From Chlorobiota bacterium (GTDB lineage Bacteria > Bacteroidota > Ignavibacteria > Kapaibacteriales > NICIL-2), in the NCBI GenBank assembly GCA_044228285.1, contig JBGAVD010000006.1:66077-130076 (forward strand): a stretch of DNA of 64,000 bases, written 5' to 3'. Positions within the stretch are counted from its first letter, which is position 1. Every line of letters starts with the position of its first letter. The notes beneath the pieces are model-generated. The model did no database searches and was not told where the DNA came from. It saw only the letters and a list, made by a program, of their open reading frames with translations. The position numbers and the translations under genes were made by a program. Positions 1 to 23,856 of this stretch are shown one piece after another.

Positions 1-3000
1 TGTGGGTTTTTGACTTGCCAATTTCCACGATACCAAACTCCGTATTCGTAGCAGTATTTGGTTGAAGTAAGCCATCTGCTATGACGTTACTGTTTCCATA
101 GATCACTACGCTTGCTGTTGCTGCGACTGCGTTTCCTTCAATGCTGAAACTGTAGTCTGTTTGTTGATCGTCGTTACTGATCACGCGAACAATAGCCTGA
201 TGTTTGCCCAAGCGAGTTGGCTCAAACTCAATGTTCAGCACTTGACTTTGTGCGGCGTTCAGCTGGTTTGAGCTTAGAGAACTGAGACTGAAGGCTGCTG
301 CATCGGCACCTTCCAAACTGATAGATTGAACACGGAGAGGTGTTTTGCCAGCATTAACTACGAGGAACGAGTTTATTACTTGCTTTCCGAGAACAACAGT
401 ACCGAAGTCTGTATTGTCTGTTCCAGAAACTGTGCGTCGACCATTAGGAACAACCTTGTAGTTACCTTTAACAACGAGGGTTCGCTGAACGCCAGTGCCT
501 TGAACGCCAAAGCTATACAGCGCTTCATCAAAGTCGTTCGAGTTGATCGTGAGTTGAGCGCTCCGGATACTCACGTCGAGTGCAGTGAATTGAACGATGA
601 CTTCTTGATAACTGTTCTTCGCTATGCGAAGTGGGAAGCTCACATTGCCAGCGATACTAAATTCTGAGTTTGCTGCTCCAGTGAAGGTAATGGACTTCAC
701 TTGTAAGTCCGTGCCACCAGTATTGTAGATGACATAGCGACGAAGACTAGACTGACCAACCACCACTTCACCAAAGTCTGTATTGTTCAAAGTCTGTGGC
801 TGGTTGCTGTTGCGAACGATGTCGATGTTGTTGCCCTTAACACTGATCTCTGCACTTGTTGCGAGAGTTGTTGGATTCGTCATTACTAAGAGTTGTCCGC
901 CTTCTACAACATCGCCAGGAATGGAGTAATGCGCTTGGCTTGTTACGATAAACTTGCCCGCTCCTAGAATATTCTGAACATCGATGATCCCGGATGACTC
1001 CTCGTCTTGGGTCAGATATCGTGACCCGCCTGCAATGAATCGCGTGGTATCATGTTGAGCCAAGAGTGTCAGTTCATCATTGGCAATTGTGTATTGCCAA
1101 AACTTTCCATTATGCGCGTTGTTGCCAACGTCTTCTTGGAGAAGAATGTGGCCATAGTTGTCGATACAAAGATTGTCGAGCATTTTTTGTCCTTCTGTTC
1201 CATCCAACACAGCAGTAATCGTTCCGCCTTGTTCAGGCTTAGAGATATCTTGGAAACGAAGACGCCACAGGCGACTAGGCGCGCTAAAGGAGTTTGTCGT
1301 CGCGAAATAGAAGTCGTTTGGACTAGAAGGATCCCACGCACCATCTTCTGGTCGCAAGAAGGTTGTTACACCACGTTGATTACTAATGGTATTAAGAGCA
1401 ACGCCATTTGTGTCACGTATAAATCCAAGATCAATCAACGAGAAACTTGTGTTTGGGCTGGTCACGAATGAGCTCTGCTCAGCTACCATACCATTCACAC
1501 CAACGCCATACAGCTTGCCATTTGTTAAGCCTGCTTTATCGATCTCAGTGCCCGCATTGGTCTTGTTTCCAACGTAGACATACACCTGACCTGGAGTGGA
1601 GTCATCAAGACCGACGACGATGGTTTTATCAGCCACCACTGGACAAGCCAGGATATTCTCACAACTGTATTTACCTAGGAAAGGCAGCTCATAGGTAGTA
1701 CCACTGTTCACTCCACTAGCGATGTGCGCAAAAAGGCGTCCATTATCTCCTGCTTCTTCGCCGTTGAGGAAGAGTCGCTCTGAAGTTCCATTGCCGCTAG
1801 CAGCGTTGAAAAATGCACTTTGTGGCGCAAGATCTGACGAACAGAATCTTGAGAAGCTTGCAAGAGGTGAAGGATTAGATGAATTGTAGGTAGTATAACC
1901 TGTAGGACCCCACAGCTTTACATTGCGGATAAGATCTGATGCGGAAACGACCGATAAGTCGTTCTTGTTTATAACCCACTTAGACACAAATGCTCCGTTA
2001 CTTCCGTGTGCACGTGTAACGCCTAAGCCAGCGGAAATTTCATGACTCACGAGCAAGGTGAATGTTCCATTGTTATTATCGAAAGCTCCGAGGCCGTCAG
2101 GCAAACCGATCATTTTATAGCCACCAGCTACAACATCACCTGTGGTAACGATTGCGTTGAATTGTACGCCTGGAGCCAATGGGCTCAAGAATGGAGTCTG
2201 CGAGCTGCTTGGACCTGCACCTAGGGCTGAGGCATAGCTATCTGGATTGAACATCTGCAACAGCTGACCGCCTTCTACTGCTTCTCCTGGTATTGGGTAG
2301 TGCGCCTGATCGACGAGAAGAAACTGTCCAGGGCCAAGGATACTTTGCATGTCGATGACACCAGATGCCTCTTCGTCTTGCGTCAGGAAGTTCACGCCGC
2401 CTGCAATGAAGCGATTGCCATCGTGCTGCGCCAATAGCTTTAATGAATCTGTTGCGACTGTGTACTGCCATACTTTGCCGTTGTGCACGTTGTTACCAAC
2501 GTCCTCTTGAAGAAGGATGTGTCCGTAGTTATCCATACACATGTTATCTAACATCTTGACACCTTCCGTGCCATCGATCACAGCCGTAATTGTTCCGCCT
2601 GCTTCTGGACTATCAACATTGTTGAAGCGTAGTCTCCACACTCTGCTGGGACTGCTGAAGGAGTTTGTGGTGTTGAAGTAGAAGTCTCTAGGGTTTGAAG
2701 GATCCCATGCACCGTCTTCCGGGCGTAAGAATGTTGTGACACCCTTGACATTGCTCATTGTATTTAGAGCAGCACCTGTAGAATCACGAACTACACCCAA
2801 GTCTACGAGCCTGAACGTTGTATTGGCACCAGGAATAGAACTGCTTGATTCTGCACTCATGCCACTAACCGCTACACCATAGAGGCGACCATTGGTGTAA
2901 CCTGCGCGATCAATCTCTGTACCTTCTTTGGTCTTAGTACCAATGTAGAAGTACACTTGGCCAGGAGTAGAATCATCGAGTCCTGCAACAACTGTTTTAT

Positions 3001-6000
3001 CGCTTTGCATTGGACGAGCGAGAAGGTTTTCGCAACTGTACTTGCCGAATGTTGGCAGCTCATAGGTCGTTCCGGCCATAGGTCCAGTCACGATATGCGC
3101 AAACATGCGTCCGTTGTCGCCTGCTTCCTCACCATTCATGAAAATGCGCTCTTGGGTTCCGTTTCCACTTGCTGGATTGTAGAGAGCGAGTGGCGTAGGG
3201 AGATCTGCAGAACAGAATCGTGAGAATGATGCCAATGGCGATGGGTTAGACATGCTGAACGTTGTGTAGGACTTGCCATTCCAAAGATTGACATTGCGGA
3301 TGAGATCGGATCCACTTTGGACACTGAGGTTGGATTTGTTGATTATCCACTTAGACACAAAAGCACCATTGCTTCCGTGAGCGCGAACTGCTCCTAGTCC
3401 TGCATTAATCTCATGAGTCATGAGAAGAGTAAACGTACCATCATTGTTGTCGAACGCACCTAAGCCATCAGGCAGACCGGTCAGTCGATACCCGTTCTTT
3501 GCTGGGTCTTGAACCGTCAACAAAGACGAGAATGAAACTGCAGGTGCGACTGGTGTGAGGTATGGTGTTTGTGAGGAACTAGCCTTCGTGCCAAACGCGC
3601 CATTGTAGGAGTCAGGATTTGTAAGAACTAAGAGTTGTCCGCCTTCAACTGCTGCACCTGGGATGGCATAATGTCCTTGCGCAGCAAGGATGAACATACC
3701 TGGTCCAAGAATACTCTGCATATCAATAATCCCAGAGCTTTCCTCATCTTGTGTAAGGTAGTTCGAACCACCAGATACAAATCGTGTACTATCATGTTGC
3801 GCAATAACCTTCAGAGAATCCGTTGCGATGGTGTACTGCCAAACCTTTCCATTGTGAACATTGTTCCCAACATCCTCTTGTAAAAGGATGTGTCCGCTCT
3901 TATCGATCACCATGTTGTCGAGCATGCGAATGCCTTCGGTACCATCGAGAACTGCGGTGATTGTACCACCGAGTTCAGGATTAGCAAGCGATGTAAAACG
4001 CAGGCGCCAGAGACGGCTAGGTGCAGAGAACGAGTTTGTTGTGTTGAAGTAGAAGTCCAGTGGATTGGATGGATCCCAAGCTCCGTCTTCTGGACGCAGG
4101 AATCGTGTTACATTTTTCGCGGTGCTCAACGCATTGATTGCTGTGCCAGTAGAATCGCGAAGTACTCCCAGATCAACCATCGTGAATTCCGTGTTGGGGG
4201 CAGGAGCTGTCGCACTGATTTCACTTGGTAAATCCTTCACAGAAATACCATAGACACGTCCATTCGTTAATCCAGCTTTGTCGATTTCGGTGCCGGTTGA
4301 GACTTTCGTTCCAACATAGACATACACTTGACCAGGTGTTGAATCATCTAGTCCAACCACCACTGTTTTATCAGCTTGGACTGGCCGAGCTAACAAGTTC
4401 TCGCAGCTGTACTTTCCTAAATGAGGAAGTTCGTAACTGTTTCCGGCATTTGGACCAGACGCAATGTGTGCAAAGAGACGCCCGTTGTCGCCTGCTTCTT
4501 CACCATTCAAGAACAGCTTCTCTTGTGTTCCCAATCCATTGAGAGGATTGTAGAAGGCATTGGTTGGTGGTAGATCTGCAGCACAAAAACGATTGAAGGC
4601 TGCTAAACTTGATGGGTTTGAAGCATTGTATGTTGTGTATGAGCTGCCATTCCACAACATCACATTCTTAATGAGATCCGAACCGCTAATGACACGCAAG
4701 TCACTTTTGTTGATGACCCATTTTGAGACAAAGGCACCGACAGATCCGTGAGCGTGCACAGCACCAGAGGAGCCACCCATCTCATGATTCACTAACAATG
4801 TAAATGTGCCGTCATTGTTATCAAAGGCACCCAAACCATCAGGCAGACCAGCTAACATGTAACCCCCAATACTGTCTTGCACAGTTAGGATCGATGTAAG
4901 CTTCACTCCGTTTGCAAGTGGAGTCATATATGGCGTTTTCAAAGTGGAAACACCCGTAATGAGGTCATAACCGAAGTCAAACGAATGCATCGCATTCGCA
5001 GATCCGGAGGAGTAGATCTTGACTTGTGAAATGTCGTTCGCCTGAATGTTGTATTGAATTGTACCAACACTCGTCTGTGCAGGAATCACAAAGGTATATG
5101 TCGAACCACTAATCGCTGGAACCAGTGAAACCAGGATACCGCCATTTACTCTGTAATTAAGCAGTGCATTCGTAACGGCTGCGTTGTCTTTAATGGTAGC
5201 CACAATAGTGAATGGACCATTAGAGTTGGTAGATACCAGTGGTGTGTGCTCAATCGTAGGATTAACCTGAATGTCATAGCTCGCACGAACAGTCGTTGGG
5301 TTTGCGGGTGTAGCATTCTGATATGCAGCTGGAGTCATCACAGCATCGCGACCCATACTCTTCACGTTAACGCGATTCGACGCGTACACATTTACTACAG
5401 TATAGCCGAAGTAGGCGTTTGGTGCGCTTTGGAAGAGAGACTCAACCAAGCTTCCACCGTTACCAGCAATAATTTGCCAGGTTTCTGCAGGATGAGGTTG
5501 AATGCTATCAGCGCAGTGAACGTGAGCAGAGAAGAACGCATCGACTTGATGTGCCTCAAAAGCGTTCCATAAGCTGTCGCGTTGAGCTGGATTCACTTCC
5601 AAACCATCGGCAGTGCTCTTAAAGTGTCCGGTGTATGCAGGCTTGTGCCCAATGGCGAAGACGTGTCGTACACCATTAGCGCGAGCTTTCATGATGTCGT
5701 TCGTAGCCCACTTGTATGAGGCAATCCCATCACGACCAACAGGGTCGGTGTTGAGAATAACGAAGTGATCGTTCTTGTAATCGAAGGAATAACTGAGCTT
5801 TGATTGATCGGTTGTGAGACTGTCGCTACCAGGAAGCAGACCCGTAATGGTTGGTCCGTTGTTTCCTGCCAGATAGTCATACATAACGCGTTGGAATGTA
5901 CGCTCAGCGGCAACAAATGATTTCTTACCAGCTGCCTTGTTCTGTGTTTCGTGATTCCCAGGGATGGCAACCAAAGTGACTGGGAGCGACGCTAAAGGAG

Positions 6001-7615
6001 ATGCTTTGTACAGACTCAACCAATTGCTGAGTTGTGATGCGAGCTTTACCGTATCTGCTTCATAGCCAAGAACCATGTCGCCAGCGAAGAAGAGATACTT
6101 CGGTAGTGGATTCATTGCTGCCAATTCCGAGAACATACGGTTAAGTTGGTAGACGTTCGCGGTGGAAGGATTGCCTACAGAATCAACATCTTCGACGCGG
6201 TTACATCCAACTACAACAAATGAGTAGTCGAGTCCGGGTGCTGAAGTTGCTTGCGACATAAAAGCGGGCCGAACAAACTTTGGAATCTTGTTCGCACCTC
6301 TCAACAAAAAGGTCACAACGTGACAAGGCAAGTTGGTAGCACTTGCTACACCGTTCTCTGCTGGACAGGTTAGGGCATAGTCATTGTCGTTACAGATCGC
6401 AATTGTACTATCATTAATAATCGACAAGCCTTCGGCTTTGTCGTAGCTGCTTGGCCATCCATTTGCAAGCAGATCCATGAACAGGGTCTTGCGCACGGCA
6501 ACAAGACCCTTTGATGCCATGCCGACGGAGTCGACGAGTGCTTCAAGTGTTTGTGTTCCGTATAAACCAGAATGGACTGGAGTTGCAGCAGCAATGTTTA
6601 TCAGATACATGCGCTTGATGTCGGTTGTACCGCGAGCTGCAGCCTCAAGAACCAGAAAGGTGCTGTCATTGATTGCAGCCATATCACCAGTCTTCCAATC
6701 CTTCAAACGAATCTGATTTGATCCGCTTCCAATAATACCATCATTGAGGTAGGCAAACATGCGTGTGGCACCGCTTGAAGGGTCGATCTCGAGAAGTCGA
6801 TGGATGCGACTAGCTTCACCAACGGTGACTGTTGGGTACAACAAAGGACTTTGAATAAGCGCATAGATCTTTCCATTTGGCGTCATGCAAATACTCTCAA
6901 AGCCGCGGTTGTTCTTGCGATATCCAAACACGGTGTCGATAGCGAAGTCTTCTGGCTGTGAGCCTGCAAGCTGTGCGTAAGGAGTGTAGCGCTTCAACAC
7001 CATACCATCAGGATTCACTTTCCAGATGCAGGCTCCTCCTTCATCGCAAAGCCAAAAGTTACCGTCTTTGTCAACAAGAATACCTTCTGAATCCACGCCC
7101 CAGACATCCTTCGCTGCCAGTTTGGAAGCGTAGTTTGCACAGTTGAGAACGGTATCCGTTGATGGCATCTCAGCAGCGGTGCTACCAAATCCTGTAGGAT
7201 TCAGCAAGCCAGAAGCTGGTGCCCCGCCTGGTCGACGTAGAACAATGGTCTGAAGAATTTGAACAGAGTCCCCGCTCAATCTCACGCGATGAATTTTTGG
7301 CGCGTAGTTCGGGAAGGCGTACATTTTGTCGTAGGTTGGTGTACAACCTACAGGATTCGCCTTACCACAATCGATGTTTGGTCCTCGATCGGAAACCACC
7401 CAATATTCAGTGCCATTGGTATTTGGAATGACACACATACCAGAGAAGCCACCCTCTCGAACGGCTATTCCCTGGTGGGTACCAATGGGAGCGGAGTACT
7501 TATTGGTATAGTCCTTGAGCTTTGTGATTTGCGCGTGGACAGTGCCTGTTGTAGCCACAAGAAAAATCGCAAGGGCATAAAGAACCATCCGATGCAAGAC
7601 AAAAAAGCGTTTCAT
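1..7615 (-). CDS. Giant secreted multi-phosphatase (3'-partial, >2538 aa): signal peptide + phytase-like propeller + metallophosphoesterase + 3x PhoX-like + Ig-like (choice-of-anchor D-type) repeats
   Basis: Manual translation from ATG 7615 gives MKRFFVLHRMVLYALAIFLVATTGTVHA-QITK. The same frame is still open at position 2 (..NTEFGIVEIGKSKTH). It is absent from the ORF track because there is no stop in the window. Motifs: GGFSG/SDRGPN/DSEG/NRGFE/KAEG/NDNDY (phytase-like, ~7470-6375); AGDMV/PGNHE/GHKP/AHVH (metallophosphoesterase, ~6230-5300); three copies of HE/RFC/NGEE/CEN/RPEDG/LDN/QED; then TDFG/TEFG-containing Ig-like repeats below ~860. Confidence 0.9.
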   Translation of the reverse strand, partial: MKRFFVLHRMVLYALAIFLVATTGTVHAQITKLKDYTNKYSAPIGTHQGIAVREGGFSGMCVIPNTNGTEYWVVSDRGPNIDCGKANPVGCTPTYDKMYAFPNYAPKIHRVRLSGDSVQILQTIVLRRPGGAPASGLLNPTGFGSTAAEMPSTDTVLNCANYASKLAAKDVWGVDSEGILVDKDGNFWLCDEGGACIWKVNPDGMVLKRYTPYAQLAGSQPEDFAIDTVFGYRKNNRGFESICMTPNGKIYALIQSPLLYPTVTVGEASRIHRLLEIDPSSGATRMFAYLNDGIIGSGSNQIRLKDWKTGDMAAINDSTFLVLEAAARGTTDIKRMYLINIAAATPVHSGLYGTQTLEALVDSVGMASKGLVAVRKTLFMDLLANGWPSSYDKAEGLSIINDSTIAICNDNDYALTCPAENGVASATNLPCHVVTFLLRGANKIPKFVRPAFMSQATSAPGLDYSFVVVGCNRVEDVDSVGNPSTANVYQLNRMFSELAAMNPLPKYLFFAGDMVLGYEADTVKLASQLSNWLSLYKASPLASLPVTLVAIPGNHETQNKAAGKKSFVAAERTFQRVMYDYLAGNNGPTITGLLPGSDSLTTDQSKLSYSFDYKNDHFVILNTDPVGRDGIASYKWATNDIMKARANGVRHVFAIGHKPAYTGHFKSTADGLEVNPAQRDSLWNAFEAHQVDAFFSAHVHCADSIQPHPAETWQIIAGNGGSLVESLFQSAPNAYFGYTVVNVYASNRVNVKSMGRDAVMTPAAYQNATPANPTTVRASYDIQVNPTIEHTPLVSTNSNGPFTIVATIKDNAAVTNALLNYRVNGGILVSLVPAISGSTYTFVIPAQTSVGTIQYNIQANDISQVKIYSSGSANAMHSFDFGYDLITGVSTLKTPYMTPLANGVKLTSILTVQDSIGGYMLAGLPDGLGAFDNNDGTFTLLVNHEMGGSSGAVHAHGSVGAFVSKWVINKSDLRVISGSDLIKNVMLWNGSSYTTYNASNPSSLAAFNRFCAADLPPTNAFYNPLNGLGTQEKLFLNGEEAGDNGRLFAHIASGPNAGNSYELPHLGKYSCENLLARPVQADKTVVVGLDDSTPGQVYVYVGTKVSTGTEIDKAGLTNGRVYGISVKDLPSEISATAPAPNTEFTMVDLGVLRDSTGTAINALSTAKNVTRFLRPEDGAWDPSNPLDFYFNTTNSFSAPSRLWRLRFTSLANPELGGTITAVLDGTEGIRMLDNMVIDKSGHILLQEDVGNNVHNGKVWQYTIATDSLKVIAQHDSTRFVSGGSNYLTQDEESSGIIDMQSILGPGMFILAAQGHYAIPGAAVEGGQLLVLTNPDSYNGAFGTKASSSQTPYLTPVAPAVSFSSLLTVQDPAKNGYRLTGLPDGLGAFDNNDGTFTLLMTHEINAGLGAVRAHGSNGAFVSKWIINKSNLSVQSGSDLIRNVNLWNGKSYTTFSMSNPSPLASFSRFCSADLPTPLALYNPASGNGTQERIFMNGEEAGDNGRMFAHIVTGPMAGTTYELPTFGKYSCENLLARPMQSDKTVVAGLDDSTPGQVYFYIGTKTKEGTEIDRAGYTNGRLYGVAVSGMSAESSSSIPGANTTFRLVDLGVVRDSTGAALNTMSNVKGVTTFLRPEDGAWDPSNPRDFYFNTTNSFSSPSRVWRLRFNNVDSPEAGGTITAVIDGTEGVKMLDNMCMDNYGHILLQEDVGNNVHNGKVWQYTVATDSLKLLAQHDGNRFIAGGVNFLTQDEEASGVIDMQSILGPGQFLLVDQAHYPIPGEAVEGGQLLQMFNPDSYASALGAGPSSSQTPFLSPLAPGVQFNAIVTTGDVVAGGYKMIGLPDGLGAFDNNNGTFTLLVSHEISAGLGVTRAHGSNGAFVSKWVINKNDLSVVSASDLIRNVKLWGPTGYTTYNSSNPSPLASFSRFCSSDLAPQSAFFNAASGNGTSERLFLNGEEAGDNGRLFAHIASGVNSGTTYELPFLGKYSCENILACPVVADKTIVVGLDDSTPGQVYVYVGNKTNAGTEIDKAGLTNGKLYGVGVNGMVAEQSSFVTSPNTSFSLIDLGFIRDTNGVALNTISNQRGVTTFLRPEDGAWDPSSPNDFYFATTNSFSAPSRLWRLRFQDISKPEQGGTITAVLDGTEGQKMLDNLCIDNYGHILLQEDVGNNAHNGKFWQYTIANDELTLLAQHDTTRFIAGGSRYLTQDEESSGIIDVQNILGAGKFIVTSQAHYSIPGDVVEGGQLLVMTNPTTLATSAEISVKGNNIDIVRNSNQPQTLNNTDFGEVVVGQSSLRRYVIYNTGGTDLQVKSITFTGAANSEFSIAGNVSFPLRIAKNSYQEVIVQFTALDVSIRSAQLTINSNDFDEALYSFGVQGTGVQRTLVVKGNYKVVPNGRRTVSGTDNTDFGTVVLGKQVINSFLVVNAGKTPLRVQSISLEGADAAAFSLSSLSSNQLNAAQSQVLNIEFEPTRLGKHQAIVRVISNDDQQTDYSFSIEGNAVAATASVVIYGNSNVIADGLLQPNTATNTEFGIVEIGKSKTH
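880..4960 (-). repeat. Intragenic tandem triplication of a PhoX-like domain, period 1371 bp (457 aa)
   Basis: Sequence encoding RPEDGAWDP lies at ~4071, ~2700 and ~1329 (spacing 1371 and 1371). LPDGLGAFDNN, GAFVSKW, NGEEAGDNGR and QEDVGNN recur with the same period, with many synonymous differences. Confidence 0.9.
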
Positions 7616-7813
7616 AGTGAAATGATATGGTTGTGAAGAGTCAGCTGTCGATGCCTGAGAAAAAGTTGCGCGACCTTGTTGTTGCCTTGAAAACATAGCT
7701 GAGTTGCCAGCCATCCGTCCACTCGCAGCATTTCGCACAGGAACTTTCTGTTGTCTTCAAAACTATTCTTCCACTATTGCCTCACTGTTCCTTCACTTTT
7801 ACGATTCAGTATG

Positions 7814-7869
7814 CTAGGAAACAACTAGGTAATACTTTTGTTGCGAGAGCATAACATTTGTTTACCTAG
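7814..7869. promoter_or_regulatory. Candidate OmpR/PhoB-type (Pho-box-like) sites upstream of the giant phosphatase
   Basis: 11-bp direct repeat CTAGGAAACAA/CTAGGTAATAC (7814-7835) plus an inverted copy TTTACCTAG (7861-7869), in the divergent intergenic region. Confidence 0.35.
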
Positions 7870-7983
7870 ACAATCTTCAAGCTGTCTAAACCCACAACCC
7901 GCAGAACTCTATTCACGCACTGCAGGTACTCTTTGGCTCAGGCTCAACTGTCCTCTTACACTTCATTTACAGAAAACGCGCTT

Positions 7984-8406
7984 ATGTCATCTCAAACCTT
8001 AGTGATTCTTTTTGATGGTGATTGCGCTTTCTGTTCAGGTTGGGTGCGTTTTCTCGCGGAGAGAGATCCACACAAGAGATTTCGATTCCTCTCTTTGCAA
8101 TCGCCCTCAGCAGCTTCGCTGCTTCAGGCAGAGCATGTACCAGAAGGCGTTGACTCTATCGTAGTCTGGTCAGAGAACAGGCTTTACATTGAATCCGAAG
8201 CAGTGCTCCGCATTGCAAAGGAGCTTGGGTTTCCGTGGAAGGTTGTGGTGCTGGGACGCGTGGTCCCTCGTGCGTTGAGAGATCTGCTCTATAGGTGGGT
8301 TGCACGACATCGACACTCTCTTTCGAGCTTTGGCGCGAGCTGCGTCATCAATGACCCAGCTGTGCGTTCACGACTAATCAATGATCTATCCGAAGTATCC
8401 CTCTGA
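7984..8406 (+). CDS. DCC1-like thiol-disulfide oxidoreductase (DUF393 family)
   Basis: ILFDGDCAFC (DxxCxxC), LQS, DSIV, RDLLYRWVARHR. ATG at 7984 preferred over TTG at 7933. Confidence 0.9.
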   Translation: MSSQTLVILFDGDCAFCSGWVRFLAERDPHKRFRFLSLQSPSAASLLQAEHVPEGVDSIVVWSENRLYIESEAVLRIAKELGFPWKVVVLGRVVPRALRDLLYRWVARHRHSLSSFGASCVINDPAVRSRLINDLSEVSL

Positions 8407-8409
8407 CAA

Positions 8410-8440
8410 AACAGGTGCAAGGCGAAGCCTTGCACCTGTT
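8410..8440. terminator. Hairpin between convergent genes, probable intrinsic terminator
   Basis: AACAGGTGCAAGGC-GAA-GCCTTGCACCTGTT, a perfect 14-bp stem flanked by A runs. Confidence 0.7.
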
Positions 8441-8510
8441 AAAAAAATCTCCTGAAGATATACCACTTCGAGCGTAGATCAACCTGATCTTGCCACGACA
8501 CTTATCAACC

Positions 8511-11500
8511 TTAGTGAACAACCAAGACGCTCTTGCGAAGTATGGTGTTTGCCTTGTGGAGTTCAAGTTGATACATCCCTGACTGTAGCTCCGTTGTCGA
8601 TAGTGTTGCATGGCCAGCGTGTACATCAAGTAAGTGCACGAGACGCCCCATCATGTCATACATACGCAGACTGCATGGCTGAAGCTCATTGCACAGAACT
8701 GTTATCATATCATTTGCTGGCTGAGGAAGTACATACCATTCTGCTTGTTTCTCTGGAGTAGCAACTGGTAGTGGTGATGAGCCGACAGTAGCCAAGACAT
8801 ACTGAGCGGTAGCTGAGCTATCTGCGCCAAACAAGACGGAGCGTTGCATGCTGTCTGCAGCAACGCCGCGACCTGCTGCTAACCAATTGTTACGATGCTC
8901 ATTGCTTGCGCGACGATACAATCTGAATTGTGTAGCATCATGTTGATCTGCATCCGAGATCTCACCAACGCGTAGGAAGCGAATGGAGTCGATGTCCAGC
9001 GCTTTGTTTGCGGGGTAAGCATGAATGATCCAGTAGACTGGTGAACGACGGATTAGTCCGCTTGGCAAGGAGTCAGGCGGCGATTCTAAGCGACTCACCA
9101 CTATGTGTTGTGAGAGTCCAGATGTGCGATAGATCGTTGCTCCTGAAGCAAAGTCGTGCACACCACTGAGCATTGGCGCTTGACTACTCATACCACGTCC
9201 AACTGGTGCGGTGGAGCGTACCAAGACAGCTCCTGAGTTGTCGGCATGTGCTGTGCCATAACGACTATAGATGCGAGTTGGATCCGCTTCGTTAAACTGA
9301 TAGTAGGCAACTGGTGGCTCAAGCTGAGGGAGGTTGTCCAAACTCGTTCCCTGCTCATAGAGCAAGTGCATACGTGCTCGAACTTCCGAGCTATCAAGGA
9401 CGCGGTTAAAGATTTGCAGCTCCTCGATCTGTCCGCGGTAGTTTCCACCTTGACCTGGCAGACCTCCTCCAATCTCCCACGGTGTTGCGCTCAGATCAAA
9501 ATGCTCGAAGTCTGCCGACGCATTCGTGTAGGCCCAAGGCACACCATTAGCGTAGAGTGTTACTCGATCTTTCGCAACCGTTATCGCCACATGCACCCAT
9601 TCTTGCACGGGAAGGTTGAAGGCAGAGGTCAATTGATAGGGCACGTTCTTCCAATAGAAGGTCAGATTGGTATTAGCACGATAGCCTTGGAAGGAGAAGC
9701 CAAAGGAGAAGCCGACATCACTTGCCCAGTTGGAGAGAATCTGTGAGAATGAGCTTTGAATGGTATCAAGCTTCAACCAACAACACACGCTGAGTCCGCT
9801 GTGTTTTTTGAGTTGAGGGATCGCAGCGATGCTGAGCATATCGTTCTTCGCACCCAGGTCTGCTGCTTTGTCTGCAACGCTATCAACTCCACAGATCGAA
9901 GGCAGTACTTGTACCATAGCGCTTATAGTCTTGGAGCTCTTGCCATAGTCGTTCGAGACCTCCAAGCTCACTGCATACGAACCTGGCTTCGAGTAAATCA
10001 CCTTCGGATTCTGAATCGTGCTATCGCTTACATAGATAGCACCAGGGAAGGACCAATGCCAGCGTGCATTTGCGCGTTCCAGCACAGAGTAATCATCAAA
10101 GTAGAAGGTATCACGTTCACAGGCTGTAAAGCGCTTGTCAACGCAAGGTTGTGCTTCTGGCTTCGAGTGTTCATAGAGAGGAGCTTCCCATATACCCAGG
10201 GTTGAACCTGTGCGCAGTTTGTTATCACGATAGAAGGCCTTCATACCACGTGTGAACAGTGCGTATGGCAGACCACTGCCATGCAGTTCCCAATCGCTCA
10301 TATCGGCATTGCGATAGAAGACTCGACCATTGTGCGAAGCGAGGTACACACCTTCGTTTGTTCCGTGTTGCATGATAAGGTCTGAAACACCATATGCTCC
10401 AATCGTAGGCGTGGTCATGTTCTTCCAGCTGTTTCCGCCGTCGCTGGTTCGGAAAACAACATTCGATGGTCGACCATTCAAGAGCACGGCATAGAGAATG
10501 TTCTCGTTTGAAGAGCTGAGACTAATGCGCATAACGCGTCGTTGGCCTCCGCTTGTTCCCGGGAAGGGCTTGAGTTCTGTCCACGTTAGACCCTCATCAA
10601 CAGTCTTCCATATTTTTCCATCCTGCATTGCATTACTTCTCTGCGACACATACATCACTTTGGGATTAGAGCGAGAAATCTCAATGTGTTGAATGACAGC
10701 TCCATTATCAGGCGAGCTCCACACTTTGGAGTAGCTACGAGCGTTGTTTACACTTCGATAAAGGGAATTCGACGAGCCAATCCAAACGGTTGAGGCGCAG
10801 CGCGGATCCCACACCATTTGACTGTACTCCATTGGATAATAGCTTTCATTTGGGAACATACCTACGCTGAAGGAAGACGTGCGGCCAGCGTTATCTATAG
10901 GCAAGTCAACTCCACCGATATCAGAGTGGTAGGTGTGTCGGGCGTTCATTGGGTTGACATATCCAGTGGCCGCTTCGCCGCCACCGAGACGAAAGAAGCT
11001 ACTGCCGTAACCTTCTCTCCAAGCGGTATTTCCATTATGGTAACGTCCGCCAACCATCACATCCTCATTCCATCCACAATCAAAGCCCCAGAAGTCGGCA
11101 CCGTTCAGACCAGACGTACGTACATCCCAGTTTTTATCGAAGAGGTCGTTGGAGTAGTTGAAACCACCATCAGTGGCGACATAACAATCAGCACCCATGC
11201 ATTTCATTTCCTGGATGTCAGGGTGCAGAGAAAAGGTACCTGTATAACCACCGATAGCAACCGGAAACGTGTTCGCCCCATCGCTTGAGCGATAGGCTGT
11301 TGTAGTTCCAACGATGACCAAATTCGCGTCGATGTGCGATGCAGCGATGCTCAAATCATAGTAGCCCTGTCCATTGCTCATGCGCAGCGTATCCGTGTTA
11401 CCGCGAGCGCTCACCCGCCAATGTTCGCCGGCATCATCGGAACGGAGGATGTAGGGTCGGGACGAGTCGCCGAGTAAGACCGCATAAATGCGTTGTGGAT

Positions 11501-12491
11501 CTGCAGGGCTCACTGTCATACGTCCAGCTCCCTCAGTACCAACATTCGTCAGCCAACCGTTAGCACGTATGCTGAAATTCAAACCACCATCTACAGATTT
11601 CCAGAATTCATAATGCTTGCCACTGGCATCAATGCGAAGGGTGTACACTTCATTGTGGTTTGCTGCATTGCTCTCGAGTTCGCAGCAGGTTCTATCGAGG
11701 GTTTTCGACCAGGTTGCACCTGCATCGCTACTGCGATAGAAGCCTTGGTTTGTTGCGGCGTAGAGAATTGTCGGCTGGTTCGCATGGACTTCTATATCAT
11801 ACACCCACAAGTTCGCCTGTTTCCAAATGGAGGTCCATGTTGTACCGCCATCAGCCGTCTTCACAACCCCACCATTGATACCAACATACACGACATTAGG
11901 ATTGCTCGGGTGTATAGCAACCGCTTCTGAGTTCGAGTATATACCTGGTTCAAGTTGCTGCCATTGCTGACCCTTATTTGTTGACTTAAAGAAACCTCCG
12001 GTTTCACTCACTGCATAGAGAATGGAGGGATTGCTTTTTGAAATATCAAAAGCATAGACGTTGCATTGCCAAGGCAAGAGCTTCGGTGGACTCGTTGAAC
12101 TCGCAGGTTGATAGGTTTCCATGGGACCCAGTGGCTTCCATTGGACACCTGCTGTTGGGCTCAGTCGTTGCTTTTCGCGCAGAACTGGAAGTGCAGAGGT
12201 CTCAGGCTGCTCGCGCAGAACTCCATCCGTCTGTATATAAGGCAGTGCCAAGCGTCGAAGACGTTTGTAGTACTTGGTATAGTTGTCTTTGACAAAAGGG
12301 TGCGAAGCATAAAAGGCTTCATAGGCACTATCGACTTTCCATATGTTCAGTGGTGTGGCGTACAGATGTCTGGTCCACTCTGGCGCACCATCTTGCTGCT
12401 TTGGCACATTGAGTGGTGCAATGAACTGTGCAGAAGCCATGAATGAACTCAGCACAAGTGTGAACAACAGAACTATCCGAAAGTGTTTCAT
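8511..12491 (-). CDS. Secreted BNR/Asp-box beta-propeller (VPS10/GH74-like) protein with PKD, LamG-like domain and T9SS C-terminal domain
   Basis: Signal peptide ..MASA-Q; many SxDGGxxW Asp-boxes; WHWSFPG..NPKVIYSKPGSYAVSL (PKD); WVHVAIT..LYANG..GQIEELQIFNRVL (LamG); C-terminal PQPAND..YDMMGR..GMY..VLVVH. Confidence 0.85.
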   Translation of the reverse strand: MKHFRIVLLFTLVLSSFMASAQFIAPLNVPKQQDGAPEWTRHLYATPLNIWKVDSAYEAFYASHPFVKDNYTKYYKRLRRLALPYIQTDGVLREQPETSALPVLREKQRLSPTAGVQWKPLGPMETYQPASSTSPPKLLPWQCNVYAFDISKSNPSILYAVSETGGFFKSTNKGQQWQQLEPGIYSNSEAVAIHPSNPNVVYVGINGGVVKTADGGTTWTSIWKQANLWVYDIEVHANQPTILYAATNQGFYRSSDAGATWSKTLDRTCCELESNAANHNEVYTLRIDASGKHYEFWKSVDGGLNFSIRANGWLTNVGTEGAGRMTVSPADPQRIYAVLLGDSSRPYILRSDDAGEHWRVSARGNTDTLRMSNGQGYYDLSIAASHIDANLVIVGTTTAYRSSDGANTFPVAIGGYTGTFSLHPDIQEMKCMGADCYVATDGGFNYSNDLFDKNWDVRTSGLNGADFWGFDCGWNEDVMVGGRYHNGNTAWREGYGSSFFRLGGGEAATGYVNPMNARHTYHSDIGGVDLPIDNAGRTSSFSVGMFPNESYYPMEYSQMVWDPRCASTVWIGSSNSLYRSVNNARSYSKVWSSPDNGAVIQHIEISRSNPKVMYVSQRSNAMQDGKIWKTVDEGLTWTELKPFPGTSGGQRRVMRISLSSSNENILYAVLLNGRPSNVVFRTSDGGNSWKNMTTPTIGAYGVSDLIMQHGTNEGVYLASHNGRVFYRNADMSDWELHGSGLPYALFTRGMKAFYRDNKLRTGSTLGIWEAPLYEHSKPEAQPCVDKRFTACERDTFYFDDYSVLERANARWHWSFPGAIYVSDSTIQNPKVIYSKPGSYAVSLEVSNDYGKSSKTISAMVQVLPSICGVDSVADKAADLGAKNDMLSIAAIPQLKKHSGLSVCCWLKLDTIQSSFSQILSNWASDVGFSFGFSFQGYRANTNLTFYWKNVPYQLTSAFNLPVQEWVHVAITVAKDRVTLYANGVPWAYTNASADFEHFDLSATPWEIGGGLPGQGGNYRGQIEELQIFNRVLDSSEVRARMHLLYEQGTSLDNLPQLEPPVAYYQFNEADPTRIYSRYGTAHADNSGAVLVRSTAPVGRGMSSQAPMLSGVHDFASGATIYRTSGLSQHIVVSRLESPPDSLPSGLIRRSPVYWIIHAYPANKALDIDSIRFLRVGEISDADQHDATQFRLYRRASNEHRNNWLAAGRGVAADSMQRSVLFGADSSATAQYVLATVGSSPLPVATPEKQAEWYVLPQPANDMITVLCNELQPCSLRMYDMMGRLVHLLDVHAGHATLSTTELQSGMYQLELHKANTILRKSVLVVH

Positions 12492-12605
12492 CCTATCCCC
12501 TTTTCTTGGTGAAGCGGCAAAATACTGAAGACTGAGGGTACGTTGGATGTGAGGCTACTGCGGTCGGCGCTCTGAGATGGATTTTCCAGTCTACAGCTAA
12601 CGAGT

Positions 12606-13372
12606 CTAGCTTGTCACTGCCGTTGCCGCAACGTATCCAATAGCGTCGCGCTTGAAGAGTGCAAAGTCGTATTGCGCTTCACCGTTGAAAGTGACAAATC
12701 GCCGGTCATCCACGTAGAGTTGACCGAGGCCTGCATATTGCTCGGCTTGTTTGTCACTGCTGTTGCTTGTACCCAAGAATGTGCGGATGTTCTGGTAGTG
12801 TCGGTTAACCAGATCTTGTACCAGTTGTGACATAGGATTCTCGTTTCGCAATGCAAACAGTGCATTCCGTATCTCGTTTTGCTCCTCGATGAGCAAGCTG
12901 TACTAGCTTTCTGACATGCTGAGCTAAGCCTTCTCGGATTGCTCAACTTAGCGGTTTCGGTATTCCTCTACGGCTTCGTCGCGTATCGCTTGTGCCTGGG
13001 TACAAATGAAGCCTTGATCGAGTTTATGTGGCTCCATGATAACGTGTCCTTGAAGTCGGTGAAGAGTTGGCTCAATTGCACCTAACAACGCGTTTAGTCA
13101 ATCACACTCCTGCTCAAGCCGCAGAGCATGTTGCTTTAGTGCTGTTGCGAGGTCAAACGAACATAGAGGATGCGCGCAATTTCCATTAAATGAAAATCGA
13201 GTTCCTGCTAAGAAAGAAGTTGCTGCAACCTCGAGAGCTCCTATTCACCATAAAGTCGGTAGTCAGCTAAGCTACGCGACTCCAGTTATTATCGTCTCTC
13301 CTTACCGTAAAGGTGCAGCATACGCATAATGATCCCTTTGCTATCGCCGACCTTTTGTACTGTGTATCGTAT
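12606..13372 (-). pseudogene. Decayed MerR-family (TipA/Mta-like) regulator with TipAS C-terminal domain
   Basis: The 5' part translates as RYTVQKVGDSKGIIMRMLHLYGKERR**LESRSLADYRLYGE*ELSRLQQLLS*QELDFHLMEIARI, a MerR HTH with stops. The 3' fragment VQDLVNRHY..YAGLGQLYVDDRRF..FALFKRDAI is TipAS-like. Confidence 0.8.
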
Positions 13373-13513
13373 AGTGACCGTGGTGCAATGTGACGTAAAA
13401 GACTGTGCTGAGGAGTTCGAGAGCAAGACTATTGTCTGACCTTAGGTGAGGTTCTTGAGAATAATGTGATGAAGAAAAAGGTATCGGAGGCTAGTGCTTA
13501 TGAGAGTTGTAGC

Positions 13514-13603
13514 TACCAGGTTCGCGGATCGCGCGGATGACACAGATCTGATCGGCGAATTCAGTGGCTGCCTGGTACTGCGGATACCGCAGATGACACG
13601 GAT
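13514..13603. repeat. Short REP-like element with 9-bp-period (C/T)(G/A)C(G/A)GAT motifs
   Basis: Heptamers at 13523/13532/13541 and 13579/13588/13597; TACCAGG (13514) and CCTGGTA (13571) form an inverted pair; lies just past the DUF1566 gene stop. Confidence 0.55.
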
Positions 13604-13619
13604 TTGTTACAATCTGAAC

Positions 13620-14840
13620 CTACCAGTGTAGAACGGCAAACGTCAATCTCCTACTCGTGGTTTTACTATTCAATATCAGTATGTAGATGCCGTTATTCAA
13701 GTCTCGACAATCAACACGCGATTGTGCAACGCCGTCGTATACAAGCGTTCCAAGCATATCAACGACTTGCATTTGCACGTCATTCAACTGAGTTTCATGA
13801 GGTACTACTAAGTATTCACTAGCTGGATTGGGATATACACCCATCACGCCCTGATCGCTTTGCAGCACATCAGTTCTTGAGTCACCTCCTCGCACGCAGA
13901 TCACTGCATGTTTGAGTGTCTTGGGATCATAGGAACTCAAACCGAAGGACCTCATGTCAACAAACCAGGCATTCGCGCTTTGTTTGTACTGAGCAGTGGA
14001 GGACCAGTAGCGAGTTGATAGTGTATTGACAAAGAGGTTTGTATACATGGCCGGCGCATTACGGGTACGGTCAACGATGCTGCACAGCTCTTTAACGTTT
14101 GGCAAACGCCAGTCGCTATGTCCGGCAGCCGTGAGGTTCTCTGCAGTACTCAATGCTTGCTCCCAACTGAGGGTGTCCGTCGAGAGTACCTTCTGCCACA
14201 TCAAGTCCGTTAGCTTGTCGCTGATGGTACCGTCTCCGTTGTCAACGAAGTGATCAACCACGGGAACAGCGTTGGCATCGCGCACAGCTCGCACATGAAA
14301 TTTCTTGTTACCGCCAGCACTAATCGTTTCTGTTTTCTGGTGCGCTCCGGATCCTCCTCCACTATTCGTCACCCATACTTTGTTGGCGTCGTTGTATTGT
14401 CGCTCGGAGGTCCACCAATATTCAGCAGAGGCTGCACTAAACACCGACACATCCATTGCGGGATTCAATCGATCGAGATTTACGATGCTTAGTGCCTCAA
14501 GAAGGGTTGGGAGACGCCAGTTGGTGTAGCCGGCGAGACTAAGCGTGTCGACGTATGTCTGCGCGCTCTCGACCGACATCTCACCGCCGTCTTCTCTCTG
14601 CCACATGAGTGTCGTCACGGTATCCGTCACTGTTCCATCACTATGCACTTGATAGACCGGCATGTTGATGCGATAATCACTGTCTTCACCAAAGGTTGCA
14701 GTATTATTCGTGGTCTGTCCACTATCTGGCCAACGCACCATGCTTTTGGCTACTTGCTGCGCAGAAAGGTCTAATGAGCACAGACCGAACGCTACGAGCA
14801 CTATGATAGATATTGGACGAAAGAGCTGTTGATCGAACAT
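13620..14840 (-). CDS. Secreted protein with two DUF1566 (Lcl C-terminal-like) domains and T9SS C-terminal domain
   Basis: Two copies of DGT(V/I)xD..T.LMWQ..W/V..A..GY/H.(N/D)WRLP..E..YW(W/S)S..VR; signal peptide; YPNPAS..GIYIL C-terminus. Confidence 0.88.
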   Translation of the reverse strand: MFDQQLFRPISIIVLVAFGLCSLDLSAQQVAKSMVRWPDSGQTTNNTATFGEDSDYRINMPVYQVHSDGTVTDTVTTLMWQREDGGEMSVESAQTYVDTLSLAGYTNWRLPTLLEALSIVNLDRLNPAMDVSVFSAASAEYWWTSERQYNDANKVWVTNSGGGSGAHQKTETISAGGNKKFHVRAVRDANAVPVVDHFVDNGDGTISDKLTDLMWQKVLSTDTLSWEQALSTAENLTAAGHSDWRLPNVKELCSIVDRTRNAPAMYTNLFVNTLSTRYWSSTAQYKQSANAWFVDMRSFGLSSYDPKTLKHAVICVRGGDSRTDVLQSDQGVMGVYPNPASEYLVVPHETQLNDVQMQVVDMLGTLVYDGVAQSRVDCRDLNNGIYILILNSKTTSRRLTFAVLHW

Positions 14841-14918
14841 GTTGATGCATTGGAATTAACAGTTAACAGCAGCACGGAACGCGATGCACTTTGAAAAGAC
14901 TCTTGAGAAGAAGCCCCC

Positions 14919-15530
14919 TTATATCCACAAGAGCATTGCTCGCTCTATGCACCAAAATAATGCGATGGCTGCTACAGCACTGTTTATTGGACGCAGAAGG
15001 GTTGAGGTTTCCTTGCGCAGCAGCGTCCACAACGCAAGGAGCGTCGCGCTACAGAGGATGACAACGACTTGCGCAAGTTCAACGCCAATATTGAAGCCAA
15101 CCAGTGTTGGAGCGAGCTCGCTGCCACTCAGACCTAGGTTTGCCAAACCAGTTGCAAAGCCGAGTCCGTGGAAAAGCCCAAACGCAAAGATCATCAATCC
15201 TCGCAGCCACTTCGTTGCTGACTGCGCTTCCAAAGTGGTATTGCTGAGATTCATCAGCGCAATAACAACTATGGAAAGTGCTATTATTGGCTCAACAATG
15301 TGACTGGAAACATGCACGAATCCCAATGTTGATAAAGCGAGAGTGCAGCTATGCGCAAGTGTAAAAATGGAACAGAGTACGAGACTGCTTCGCAAGCGCG
15401 CCGTCATGAGCGTCAGCGAAAGAATAAACAGTATATGATCAATGCCGCGCGGTAGCACATGCATGAATCCTTGGACAGCCGATGTTTCAAAGAGTGTTCC
15501 CATGCTATTCAATGAATAACTTCTTGACAT
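14919..15530 (-). CDS. HupE/UreJ-family membrane protein
   Basis: GFMHVL..GIDHILF, FTLAHS, VEPIIALSI, FGLFHGLGFA, GFNIGVELAQ. Overlaps the upstream gene end; the true start may be the M at ~15503. Confidence 0.9.
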   Translation of the reverse strand: MSRSYSLNSMGTLFETSAVQGFMHVLPRGIDHILFILSLTLMTARLRSSLVLCSIFTLAHSCTLALSTLGFVHVSSHIVEPIIALSIVVIALMNLSNTTLEAQSATKWLRGLMIFAFGLFHGLGFATGLANLGLSGSELAPTLVGFNIGVELAQVVVILCSATLLALWTLLRKETSTLLRPINSAVAAIALFWCIERAMLLWI

Positions 15531-22134: not shown

Positions 22135-22162
22135 GCGTTGAGTCCTCGCTGTAAAGCAATAG

Positions 22163-22789
22163 TTAGTGAGGAGCGTTGTTCGGACGATCGTCACGTGGAC
22201 GTTCGTTGTCGTCTTGACGACCTGGCGGACGACCATCACTGCGACGACGTCGATCGTCACGTCCCCCATAGCCTCGCTTGCCATGTCGCGGATTCGGTCG
22301 AAAGTAGTCGCGAATATCTTTCACGAGTCTTTCAAACTTCTTCGCTTGTTCTTTTGTACAGATTTCTTTGAAGGCCTTGGCTTGATCGTAGCGTAGCATT
22401 TCCATTGCATACTCATTGTCGGCCACGCGTCGAGCCAATGCTTGCACAAGAGCATCATCTGTTGAGGCATGGAACATCGATGCATTCATGGAGTCGCGCT
22501 CATCGCGGATGTGTTGTGAAAGCTCACGTTCCTTTATGCGAAAGTCAGCGCGCAATTGTTCTATTCGTCGACATTGGTCATCTGTGAGATTCAGTTCAGA
22601 CTTGAGCACATCAGAAAGCTCAGCTTTTTCCTCGGTCGCAGGACGTTGCTCTTCGCGTTGAAGTTGCGCACTCGGCACATCATTGTGTTTCCATTCTTGC
22701 CATACTATTGCCCCAACAATGCAAGCATTAATCAGGACCAAGGCCATGACTAAGCGGAGTAATGTTCGATTTTGTTGAATAATATCCAT
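22163..22789 (-). CDS. Spy/CpxP/ZraP-like periplasmic (heavy-metal sensor-type) protein
   Basis: N-terminal TM; LNLTDDQ and ICTKEQ (LTxxQ motifs); helical; low-complexity RD/GRPP tail. Confidence 0.8.
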   Translation of the reverse strand: MDIIQQNRTLLRLVMALVLINACIVGAIVWQEWKHNDVPSAQLQREEQRPATEEKAELSDVLKSELNLTDDQCRRIEQLRADFRIKERELSQHIRDERDSMNASMFHASTDDALVQALARRVADNEYAMEMLRYDQAKAFKEICTKEQAKKFERLVKDIRDYFRPNPRHGKRGYGGRDDRRRRSDGRPPGRQDDNERPRDDRPNNAPH

Positions 22790-22800
22790 AGAGCTCTACA

Positions 22801-23121: not shown

Positions 23122-23136
23122 GAGAGTCTTAGTGTA

Positions 23137-23165
23137 TTGGACGATTAATTAAGATAGAACTAGCG
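23137..23165 (-). promoter_or_regulatory. Candidate ECF-type promoter for the downstream operon
   Basis: CGCTAG-N16-CGTCCAA immediately after the sigma stop codon; a CGTC -10 element is typical of ECF promoters. Confidence 0.3.
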
Positions 23166-23167
23166 CT

Positions 23168-23761: not shown

Positions 23762-23827
23762 GCATCTCTACCGCCTTATCTCAAGAGTCTATTTCTTACA
23801 CGCGCGCTCCGCGTATGTCGGATTATA

Positions 23828-23856
23828 GGAACAAAAAACATGGCTTTTGGTTACAG
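23828..23856 (-). promoter_or_regulatory. Candidate ECF promoter TGTAAC-N16-TGTT upstream of the sigma gene
   Basis: Minus strand CTGTAACCAAAAGCCATGTTTTTTGTTCC; the same geometry recurs at 63967-63995. Confidence 0.45.

Follow-up and report, generated by a model that had tools for sequence, protein, structure and literature searches.

The 64,000-nucleotide stretch of DNA analysed here (the window) belongs to contig JBGAVD010000006.1 of a Chlorobiota bacterium of the order Kapaibacteriales (assembly GCA_044228285.1, positions 66,077 to 130,076 of the forward strand), and its left end is occupied by one giant gene on the minus strand. The gene starts at ATG 7615, runs off the window at position 1 and encodes a protein of 2718 amino acids (aa) counted from that codon (P0002), residues 1-2538 of which lie within the window (1..7615, minus strand, by frame and translation). 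From the N-terminus onwards, the chain comprises a predicted signal peptide, a 'phytase-like' domain (PF13449), a calcineurin-like metallophosphoesterase domain (PF00149), three PhoX-like propeller repeats (PF05787), three immunoglobulin-like (Ig-like) domains (NF012200) and a putative type IX secretion system (T9SS) sorting domain. A preliminary description, made from the sequence letters and a list of open reading frames (ORFs), had named a phytase-like, a calcineurin-like and three PhoX-like domains with at least three Ig-like repeats, and all of them were found.

When ORFs are listed with open ends allowed, the minus-strand frame spans window positions 2..7738 (2579 aa), is open at its 3' end and contains no stop codon, and no similarly large ORF overlaps it. 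The preliminary description had traced one frame of more than 2500 aa from ATG 7615 off the window edge and remarked that it was absent from the ORF track; the frame is indeed uninterrupted, and its absence fits the listing of frames that run off an end only when open ends are allowed. In the same contig extended 12 kb leftward (L003), the stop codon of the gene lies 541 bases to the left of window base 1 (L003 11459-11461), with no in-frame stop before it. From two other assemblies, proteins of 2718 and 2721 aa match the chain at 100% coverage, with 71% and 68% identity (P0003 and P0004). The first domain starts at residue 30 here and at residue 25 or 34 in these two full-length orthologues (25 in P0003, the 71%-identical one), which fits ATG 7615 as the start codon, not the upstream GTG at 7738. 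Moreover, the shared domain order and the similar start of the first domain in both orthologues speak both for this start codon and for an intact assembly.

Public sequencing runs add strain-level evidence. Run X1, possibly the source of this DNA, has contigs covering all 30 bins of the region, and the long X1 pieces show 0 differences. Run X3 holds a strain variant whose differences are all substitutions. Among the 40 differences listed (60 further exist), 37 are synonymous in the frame and 36 fall at third codon positions; the 37 synonymous changes point to purifying selection on the frame. The 2718-aa frame is a real gene.

The three tandem repeats, each of ~456 aa and 68-70% identical to one another in pairwise comparison, occupy residues 891-1346 (3578..4945), 1347-1803 (2207..3577) and 1804-2254 (854..2206), all on the minus strand. 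The first and third were delimited by PF05787 and alignment, and the second, which was modelled, by PF05787, Foldseek, VIA-align and hhalign. In Pfam, PF05787 matches repeats 1, 2 and 3 with 35.4, 31.3 and 36.6 bits, all above the cut-off of 24 bits. The model of repeat 2 and the family consensus were built from 37 aligned members (alignment A1) that are 46-70% identical to repeat 2. AlphaFold2 predicts a six-bladed propeller with a mean predicted local distance difference test score (pLDDT) of 96.4 and a predicted template modelling score of 0.94. The top Foldseek match of this model is PhoX of Pseudomonas fluorescens (4a9v), with an expectation value (E) of 2.6e-16, and the next match follows at 5e-7. 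VIA-align superposes model and PhoX with Z 27.1 and a root-mean-square deviation of 3.3 over 385 aligned residues; generic six-bladed propellers reach Z ~25.5, a small margin to PhoX, over ~275-278 aligned residues. Additionally, hhalign aligned the repeat family with canonical PhoX of the twin-arginine translocation (Tat) type from the same phylum over 363 columns, with a probability of 98.1% and E 9.6e-14. The canonical profile (A2) was made of six PF05787 proteins from same-phylum genomes, five of which start with the Tat-type SRR/SRK-xFLK pattern. In this alignment, the NHE, Cys, GEE, EN, DD, RPE, DN and ED motifs of the two groups fall in register.

Residue numbers of PhoX were assigned by aligning one canonical same-phylum protein to the PDB chains of PhoX. 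Position 179 is the Cys of N-C-A, which we take to be the PhoX active-site Cys, and this numbering is consistent with that of D292 and R385. The latter two have been named as active-site residues of PhoX (PMC11098088); in the alignment to canonical PhoX, D292 is the second Asp of G-D-D and R385 is the Arg of R-P-E. PhoX is reported to use a thiolate ligand for Fe3+ (PMC4223295). The equivalents of Cys179, Asp292 and Arg385, the three checked by name among the ten active-site residues of PhoX, are invariant in the repeat family and kept in all three repeats (C1011, D1091 and R1174; C1468, D1548 and R1631; C1925, D2005 and R2088). More broadly, many charged residues and one Cys are invariant across the 37 family members and fall on PhoX active-site motifs. 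Fold and conserved residues thus support the view, already put forward in the preliminary description, that the repeats are PhoX-like, with matches obtained both by profile hidden Markov models and by structure.

The metallophosphoesterase domain, residues 455-785 (5261..6253, minus strand; PF00149, AlphaFold2 and Foldseek), appears to be a Cys-variant relative of purple acid phosphatases (PAPs). Its motifs read G-C471-N-R, G-D513-xxx-G-Y518, G-N554-H-E, G-H656-K-P and H698-x-H700. PF00149 scores 37.3 bits against a cut-off of 21.5, and its match begins only at profile position 16, so that motif I is missed. In the AlphaFold2 model (pLDDT 87.8), the Cys comes directly after beta-1, the usual place of motif I in this fold. 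Foldseek returned 234 PDB matches of the model at E<=0.001, and every top match listed is a metallophosphoesterase. Their E values range from 3e-12 to 1e-9 and include SMPDL3A (3.4e-12), PAPs (~2e-11) and PhoD 2yeq (1.3e-10, rank 27), as well as GpdQ and Rv0805. The metallophosphoesterase fold is thereby confirmed at the level of the model, with no subfamily favoured.

The first motif of this domain is unusual. Canonical motif I of PF00149 is D-x-H, and G-C-N-R stands here instead. Purple acid phosphatases bind their metals through the ligand set D, D, Y, N, H, H and H; in this domain the first Asp is Cys471, the Tyr deviates and the other five are present. Motif I is GCNR in nine of nine fused homologues, and among 43 stand-alone or fused relatives (alignment A3) its variable column holds Cys in 39 and Asp in 4, next to an invariant Arg. 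The GD, GNHE, GHKP and HxH sequences of motifs II-V are invariant in all 43. The candidate tyrosinate, Y518, is Tyr in 41 of the 43, with one His and one Phe, and lies five residues after the Asp (D-x4-Y), compared with three (D-x2-Y) in PAPs.

A parallel is offered by PhoD. Asp and Tyr are confirmed at the Fe3+ site of PAPs, the sole difference reported between the Fe3+ ligands of PhoD and PAPs is Cys for Asp, and the PhoD family divides into Cys and Asp subfamilies (PMC4223295). C471 would correspond to PhoD Cys180, which replaces the Fe3+-binding Asp of PAPs (PMC4223295), and the similar alternation of Cys and Asp among the relatives of the present domain argues that C471 is a metal ligand at the Fe3+ position. 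The second site looks PAP-like in its Asn and His residues, as judged from the motifs, and differs here from PhoD, which has calcium sites. No match to PF09423 (PhoD) was obtained at E<=0.1, which indicates that the domain is not a PhoD; a family profile run against the PDB found purple acid phosphatases at E 2.3e-6, through the C-terminal half only. Two further metallophosphoesterase genes, of 586 and 600 aa, lie in the window at 17223-18983 and 19007-20809 on the minus strand. Their products have canonical D-x-H first motifs and weak T9SS-tail matches, and, by hhalign (probability 86%, E 5e-6), they belong to another subfamily than the Cys-type domain.

The N-terminal PF13449 domain spans residues 30-457 (6245..7528, minus strand) and is matched over profile positions 4-284 of 284 (E 2.1e-43, 149.7 bits against a cut-off of 27.6). 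Such domains are N-terminal in 114 of 122 homologous cases. No match to the beta-propeller phytase family PF02333 was found in it at E<=0.1, and the name PF13449 does not imply phytase activity. Several candidate relationships were rejected or set aside. As a relative of PhoX, the domain reached hhalign probabilities of 5.7% against the PhoX-like repeat and 17.7% against canonical PhoX and was treated as unrelated; a sequence search of the PDB gave chance matches only (E 0.27); and a feature search of the ESM Atlas returned leads too weak to use, below 0.8 (DUF3616, DUF6929 and apyrase). Phosphorus limitation is reported to induce a 'phytase-like' protein of Nodularia and the metallophosphoesterase next to it (PMC9846622), and in Synechococcus exoproteomes a 'phytase-like' protein is reported to rise together with alkaline phosphatases (PMC4949707); both are indirect hints at function, likened to the present domain by name.

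Between the metallophosphoesterase and the first PhoX-like repeat lies an unassigned domain of ~105 aa, residues 786-890 (4946..5260, minus strand), recognised as a gap between domains that has no Pfam or NCBIfam family. A domain of this size comes after the metallophosphoesterase in eight of eight fused homologues listed and is possibly an Ig-like beta spacer. NCBIfam likewise holds no family for the PF13449 domain or the metallophosphoesterase domain, and none of its models covers the PhoX-like module.

The stalk and the signals for export complete the protein. NF012200 matches three stretches with 164.5 bits against a cut-off of 45 (E 9e-49), corresponding to three choice-of-anchor-D Ig-like domains at residues ~2262-2625, in which an NTxFG motif returns every 123 residues. 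Domains 1 and 2 cover residues ~2262-2507 (95..832, minus strand; NF012200, PF22544 and related models), and domain 3 covers residues 2508 to ~2625, its start lying at 1..94 (minus strand; best NF012200 stretch 2502-2609) and the remainder outside the window. A T9SS type-A C-terminal sorting domain is recognised near threshold by TIGR04183 and PF18962 at residues 2640-2711 of 2718 (L003 11483-11698, minus strand), and precomputed domain lists include PF18962 for P0002 and most of its relatives. At the other end, the sequence after ATG 7615, MKRFFVLHRMVLYALAIFLVATTGTVHA followed by Q, begins with basic residues, continues with a hydrophobic core and ends in a small-x-small cleavage site, and it has neither twin Arg nor a lipobox Cys or any other Cys. 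It is read as a Sec signal peptide, residues 1-28 (MKRFF...TVHA/Q; 7532..7615, minus strand), directly from the sequence rather than from a predictor. The genome also encodes SprA (625 and 243 bits within a single frame, against a cut-off of 200) and PorU (832 bits, cut-off 420). PF18962 passes its cut-off in three neighbouring genes. A run of T9SS cargo genes in which PF18962 exceeds its cut-off occupies window positions 8511-17112 on the minus strand and encodes a 1326-aa protein with BNR/sortilin, LamG and PKD domains, an Lcl_C protein of 406 aa and a YHYH protein of 535 aa; a gene for a HupE/UreJ membrane protein lies amid them.

Proteins of this kind form a large group. A search for the PhoX-like module in 1.84 billion cluster representatives gave 2091 relatives at E<=0.001, both stand-alone proteins of ~500-800 aa and multi-domain ones. 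With the whole protein as query, 7999 candidates were scored and 501 relatives, of 1494-4757 aa, passed at E<=0.001; many of the 501 are automatically named 'secreted PhoX family phosphatase'. The large relatives have the same modules, order and T9SS tail, most of them with one or two PhoX-like repeats and no metallophosphoesterase. Architectures were counted in the 120 best matches, the query included, with our own profiles and a length filter that favours multi-repeat forms. PF13449 with two repeats accounts for 84 of the 120, PF13449 with one repeat for 20 and PF13449 with three repeats for 8. The five-domain form of the query (PF13449, metallophosphoesterase and three repeats) occurs in 3, query included, the metallophosphoesterase with three repeats in 2, and one case each was found of the metallophosphoesterase with two repeats, of three repeats alone and of PF13449 with the metallophosphoesterase and one repeat. 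The architecture class is therefore common in databases, and only the full five-domain form is rare.

The history of the repeats was explored with a tree built by a quick method from 56 repeat domains of 25 chosen proteins, with support values solely from the Shimodaira-Hasegawa-like approximate likelihood-ratio test. In the query and its two orthologues, the repeats cluster by position (support 89-95), which indicates that the triplication is older than the divergence of these three proteins and that all three copies have been kept since. In at least nine other proteins of the tree, repeats cluster within their own protein, which means independent duplication or gene conversion.

In a survey of the PhoX-like module in named organisms, 596 of the 616 stretches that matched could be confirmed, and the 80 best were retained. 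Niastella vici, Taibaiella helva, Taibaiella koreensis and Ferruginibacter paludis are carriers that have been cultured. The form in Niastella vici is 705 aa long, ends in a T9SS tail and is encoded beside FecR, TonB-dependent receptor and SusD genes. In cyanobacteria, a 3249-aa protein of Pseudanabaena combines EEP, 5'-nucleotidase, PF13449, PhoX-like, cadherin and RTX domains, and a 3849-aa protein of Dolichospermum carries EEP, PhoD and RTX domains and is followed by a 1466-aa PhoA-RTX gene. These two cyanobacterial giants (L046:2974-12723 and L052:1180-17900) also include, as a combined set, SdiA-regulated propellers and cadherin/Calx-beta domains. The multi-phosphoesterase mega-protein is thus a recurring design that is used with different secretion systems.

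Several characterised enzymes invite comparison. The best structural match of the repeats, PhoX of P. fluorescens (4a9v, 3zwu, 4amf; PF05787/COG3211), is likewise a six-bladed propeller and shares with them the Cys, Asp and Arg as well as the NHE, EE, EN, DN and ED motifs. It differs in size (~590 aa compared with ~456 aa per repeat) and in context, being a single stand-alone Tat-exported enzyme, whereas the repeats are three tandem copies inside a Sec/T9SS protein that has no twin Arg. Another comparable enzyme is Fjoh_2478, a PhoX-like lipoprotein of Flavobacterium johnsoniae, described as PhoX-divergent, Sec-exported and located at the outer surface (PMC8115612, PMC8812569). No other PhoX-like enzyme of Bacteroidota with experimental work behind it was found in the literature searched, and Fjoh_2478 probably belongs to a different clade from the repeats. 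Its gene is reported to be paired with a MauG-like neighbour (Fjoh_2478/2477). A similar pair stands in two genomes of the same order as the query (L020:1330-4415 and L021:1018-4095), where a PF05787 protein of ~620-630 aa is followed by a gene for a MauG-like di-haem peroxidase. The repeat profile does not detect these two PF05787 proteins (E 0.03-0.26), the MauG-paired clade has no member in the present genome, and no MauG-like gene lies beside the giant ORF.

Psip1 of marine picocyanobacteria, a PhoX-like Fe/Ca propeller phosphatase, is described as having no Tat signal, and fusions to a phytase-like domain and ORFs with multiple Psip1 copies are also noted (PMC11098088). It is like the repeats by description; Psip1 is reported to lack a conserved-domain match, whereas the repeats pass the PF05787 threshold. 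As regards the metallophosphoesterase, its fold is shared by PhoD of Bacillus subtilis (2yeq) and PAPs, and with the latter it also shares an Asp, the Asn and three His of the ligand set.

The surroundings of the gene are mixed. Within this genome, the PF13449, metallophosphoesterase and PhoX-like families occur only in the giant gene; elsewhere there are one PhoD-like gene and one PF01663 gene, and PhoA has no representative. Upstream lies an unusually long gap of 895 bp (window 7616-8510), in which no Rfam match at E<=0.1 and no terminator-like site were detected, and sigma-70-like sites are no more frequent than by chance (2 against 1.0 expected); a plus-strand ORF of 157 aa (7933-8406) sits inside it. 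On the downstream side, the extended contig carries a nitrous-oxide reductase cluster on the plus strand (L003:2019-9482: NosZ-type propeller, NosL, NosD, ABC ATPase, ABC-2 permease and NnrS), after which genes for a fasciclin protein and a TPR protein come. Beyond the two smaller phosphoesterase genes, window positions 22163-25987 (minus strand) encode a metal-resistance/LTXXQ periplasmic protein, an extracytoplasmic function sigma factor and a second, DUF6596-containing protein of the sigma-70 type. Two minus-strand ORFs, of 465 aa (20887-22284) and 766 aa (34925-37225), match no Pfam family at the thresholds used.

Considering these features together, we think it fairly likely that the giant protein is a Sec- and T9SS-exported array of phosphoester hydrolases mounted on a stalk, and that it probably helps the cells to harvest phosphorus. 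The Sec system would export the chain unfolded, and the domains would fold and bind metal in the periplasm. The SprA translocon would then recognise the C-terminal sorting domain and PorU would cut it off, leaving the protein anchored to the surface or released. There, the three choice-of-anchor-D domains would serve as a cell-proximal stalk holding out five catalytic-type modules, which together might hydrolyse organic phosphate mono- and diesters outside the cell, so that phosphate is released nearby. The link to phosphorus is drawn from the PhoX-like modules fused or adjacent to phosphatase domains in cyanobacteria, the gene context in Niastella vici and the induction by phosphorus limitation in Nodularia. 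[quoted passage not shown]

Much of this agrees with the preliminary description, which had proposed a Sec-exported, probably T9SS-displayed platform with different cofactor needs. Sec export is supported by an N-terminus with no twin Arg, as opposed to the SRRxFLK-type starts of canonical PhoX in the same phylum, and T9SS display is suggested by a putative tail that sits at the true C-terminus, just under both cut-offs, in a genome with SprA and PorU. Mixed cofactor needs have to be revised: with a PhoD-like Cys at the Fe3+ position of the metallophosphoesterase, the needs may be less mixed, and by sequence and analogy four of the five domains may use thiolate-bound iron. The architecture had also been called unfamiliar as a characterised system. 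In the literature searched, subscription journals not being covered, we found neither a characterised member nor a description of it, nor any account of a Cys-type PAP-like enzyme; the class is, however, not rare, as its 501 large relatives show. The earlier interpretation thus appears largely right and is supported in part, with corrections to class frequency and cofactors.

Several findings weigh against the array of hydrolases. The PF05787 matches are partial, covering profile positions ~232-366 or 232-472 of 515, and the identity of the repeats to PhoX is 11-14%. In place of the His in the H-E-N motif of PhoX, Cys stands here and Trp in the consensus of the family. A single repeat has no sequence match in the PDB at E<=1, and the repeat-family profile retrieved from the PDB not PhoX but an arginine kinase at E 1.5, a chance match. 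For PF13449, no solved or characterised member was found by sequence search of the PDB or in the literature searched, 'phytase-like' being a name only; in the metallophosphoesterase, the role of Y518 as a tyrosinate ligand is uncertain. The T9SS tail scores below both cut-offs (TIGR04183 21.3 bits against 23; PF18962 25 against 27, profile positions 3-74 of 75), as does a PorV-like gene adjoining PorU, whose pieces reach 167.8 and 77.7 bits against a cut-off of 250. Furthermore, the window contains no pst or pho genes, and no RNA run is among the listed public runs that hold the region.

Some of these points would suit a different use of the same activities. The array could degrade extracellular polymeric phosphodiesters (for instance DNA or RNA, teichoic acids, the head groups of phospholipids, or polyphosphate) for carbon or nucleoside supply, biofilm remodelling or competition, and not as a response to phosphate starvation. 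The metallophosphoesterase fold matches diesterases (SMPDL3A/B, GpdQ, Rv0805 and PhoD) as well as PAPs, EEP nuclease/phosphatase and 5'-nucleotidase domains occur as fusion partners in relatives, catalytic modules in tandem are well matched to polymeric substrates, and pho/pst genes are missing nearby. The DNA was found, moreover, in runs labelled as bioreactor, sludge or wastewater metagenomes, habitats that are not obviously phosphate-poor; this is a weak hint at habitat, as only three runs, from one sample, contain more than half of the region and others, labelled sludge, wastewater or freshwater, hold small shares (7 of 30 bins in X5, for instance). We nevertheless regard this explanation as rather unlikely: among solved structures, three of the five domains have their closest relative in PhoX, which is reported to be a phosphomonoesterase (PMC8812569), and in Nodularia it is phosphorus limitation that induces the phytase-like and neighbouring metallophosphoesterase genes (PMC9846622). 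It also overlaps with the harvest of phosphorus, since both predict extracellular phosphoester hydrolysis.

That the propellers and the metallophosphoesterase are non-catalytic binding modules of a surface adhesin or lectin-like protein seems improbable. T9SS adhesins commonly contain beta-propellers and Ig-like repeats, the Z of generic six-bladed propellers (25.5) comes close to that of PhoX (27.1), the first motif of the metallophosphoesterase departs from the canonical one and PF13449 has no proven activity; on the other hand, the invariant charged residues and Cys of the 37 family members fall on PhoX active-site motifs and are kept in all three repeats, motifs II-V are invariant in 43 of 43 relatives, and the Cys/Asp alternation fits a metal ligand. 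We give very little credence to the possibility that the long frame is an assembly artefact of mis-joined repeats, or an interrupted and decaying gene. The repeats are 66% identical as DNA, a value too low for assembly collapse, and two other assemblies hold orthologues (2718 and 2721 aa) whose domains follow the same order. The Logan contigs of X1 do break at ~3813-3867, 5007-5028 and 6733-6795, but their pieces show 0 differences, and X3, with 37 of its 40 listed differences synonymous, has substitutions only. Contigs of run X2, from the same sample as X1 and with a depth below 6, carry deletions of 1-2 bases at 1183, 4057, 4519 and 7294 that are absent from X1 and X3; these are probably errors and less likely real frameshifted variants.

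Within the array of hydrolases that we favour, a more specific and doubtful, though conceivable, proposal is that two undescribed enzyme clades, Sec/T9SS-exported PhoX-like Fe/Ca propellers and a PAP-like metallophosphoesterase with a PhoD-type Cys, are joined as an all-iron-thiolate cascade. In such a cascade, the metallophosphoesterase as a diesterase and the PF13449 domain would open polymeric or caged organophosphates, and three non-redundant PhoX-like monoesterases would strip the phosphate. The Cys-for-Asp metallophosphoesterase would add to PhoD a second, independent example of thiolate-bound Fe3+ in a PAP-type site. If the clustering of repeats within single proteins reflects amplification, multivalent catalysis on a stalk may itself be under selection.

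These possibilities matter for the phosphorus cycle, where surveys count phoA, phoD, phoX and pafA genes. The PhoX-like module scores 31-37 bits with partial coverage on the PhoX model. Hundreds of large T9SS proteins in Bacteroidota carry it, and so do cyanobacterial RTX giants. Should such modules be active Fe/Ca phosphatases, there would be a sizeable class of under-counted extracellular phosphatases. If the cascade also holds true, much of the extracellular phosphatase activity of environmental Bacteroidota, and of some cyanobacteria, would be iron-limited and missed by phoA/phoD/phoX surveys. In active modules, the demand for iron would be multiplied by the number of copies per chain, tying the release of phosphorus to the supply of iron.

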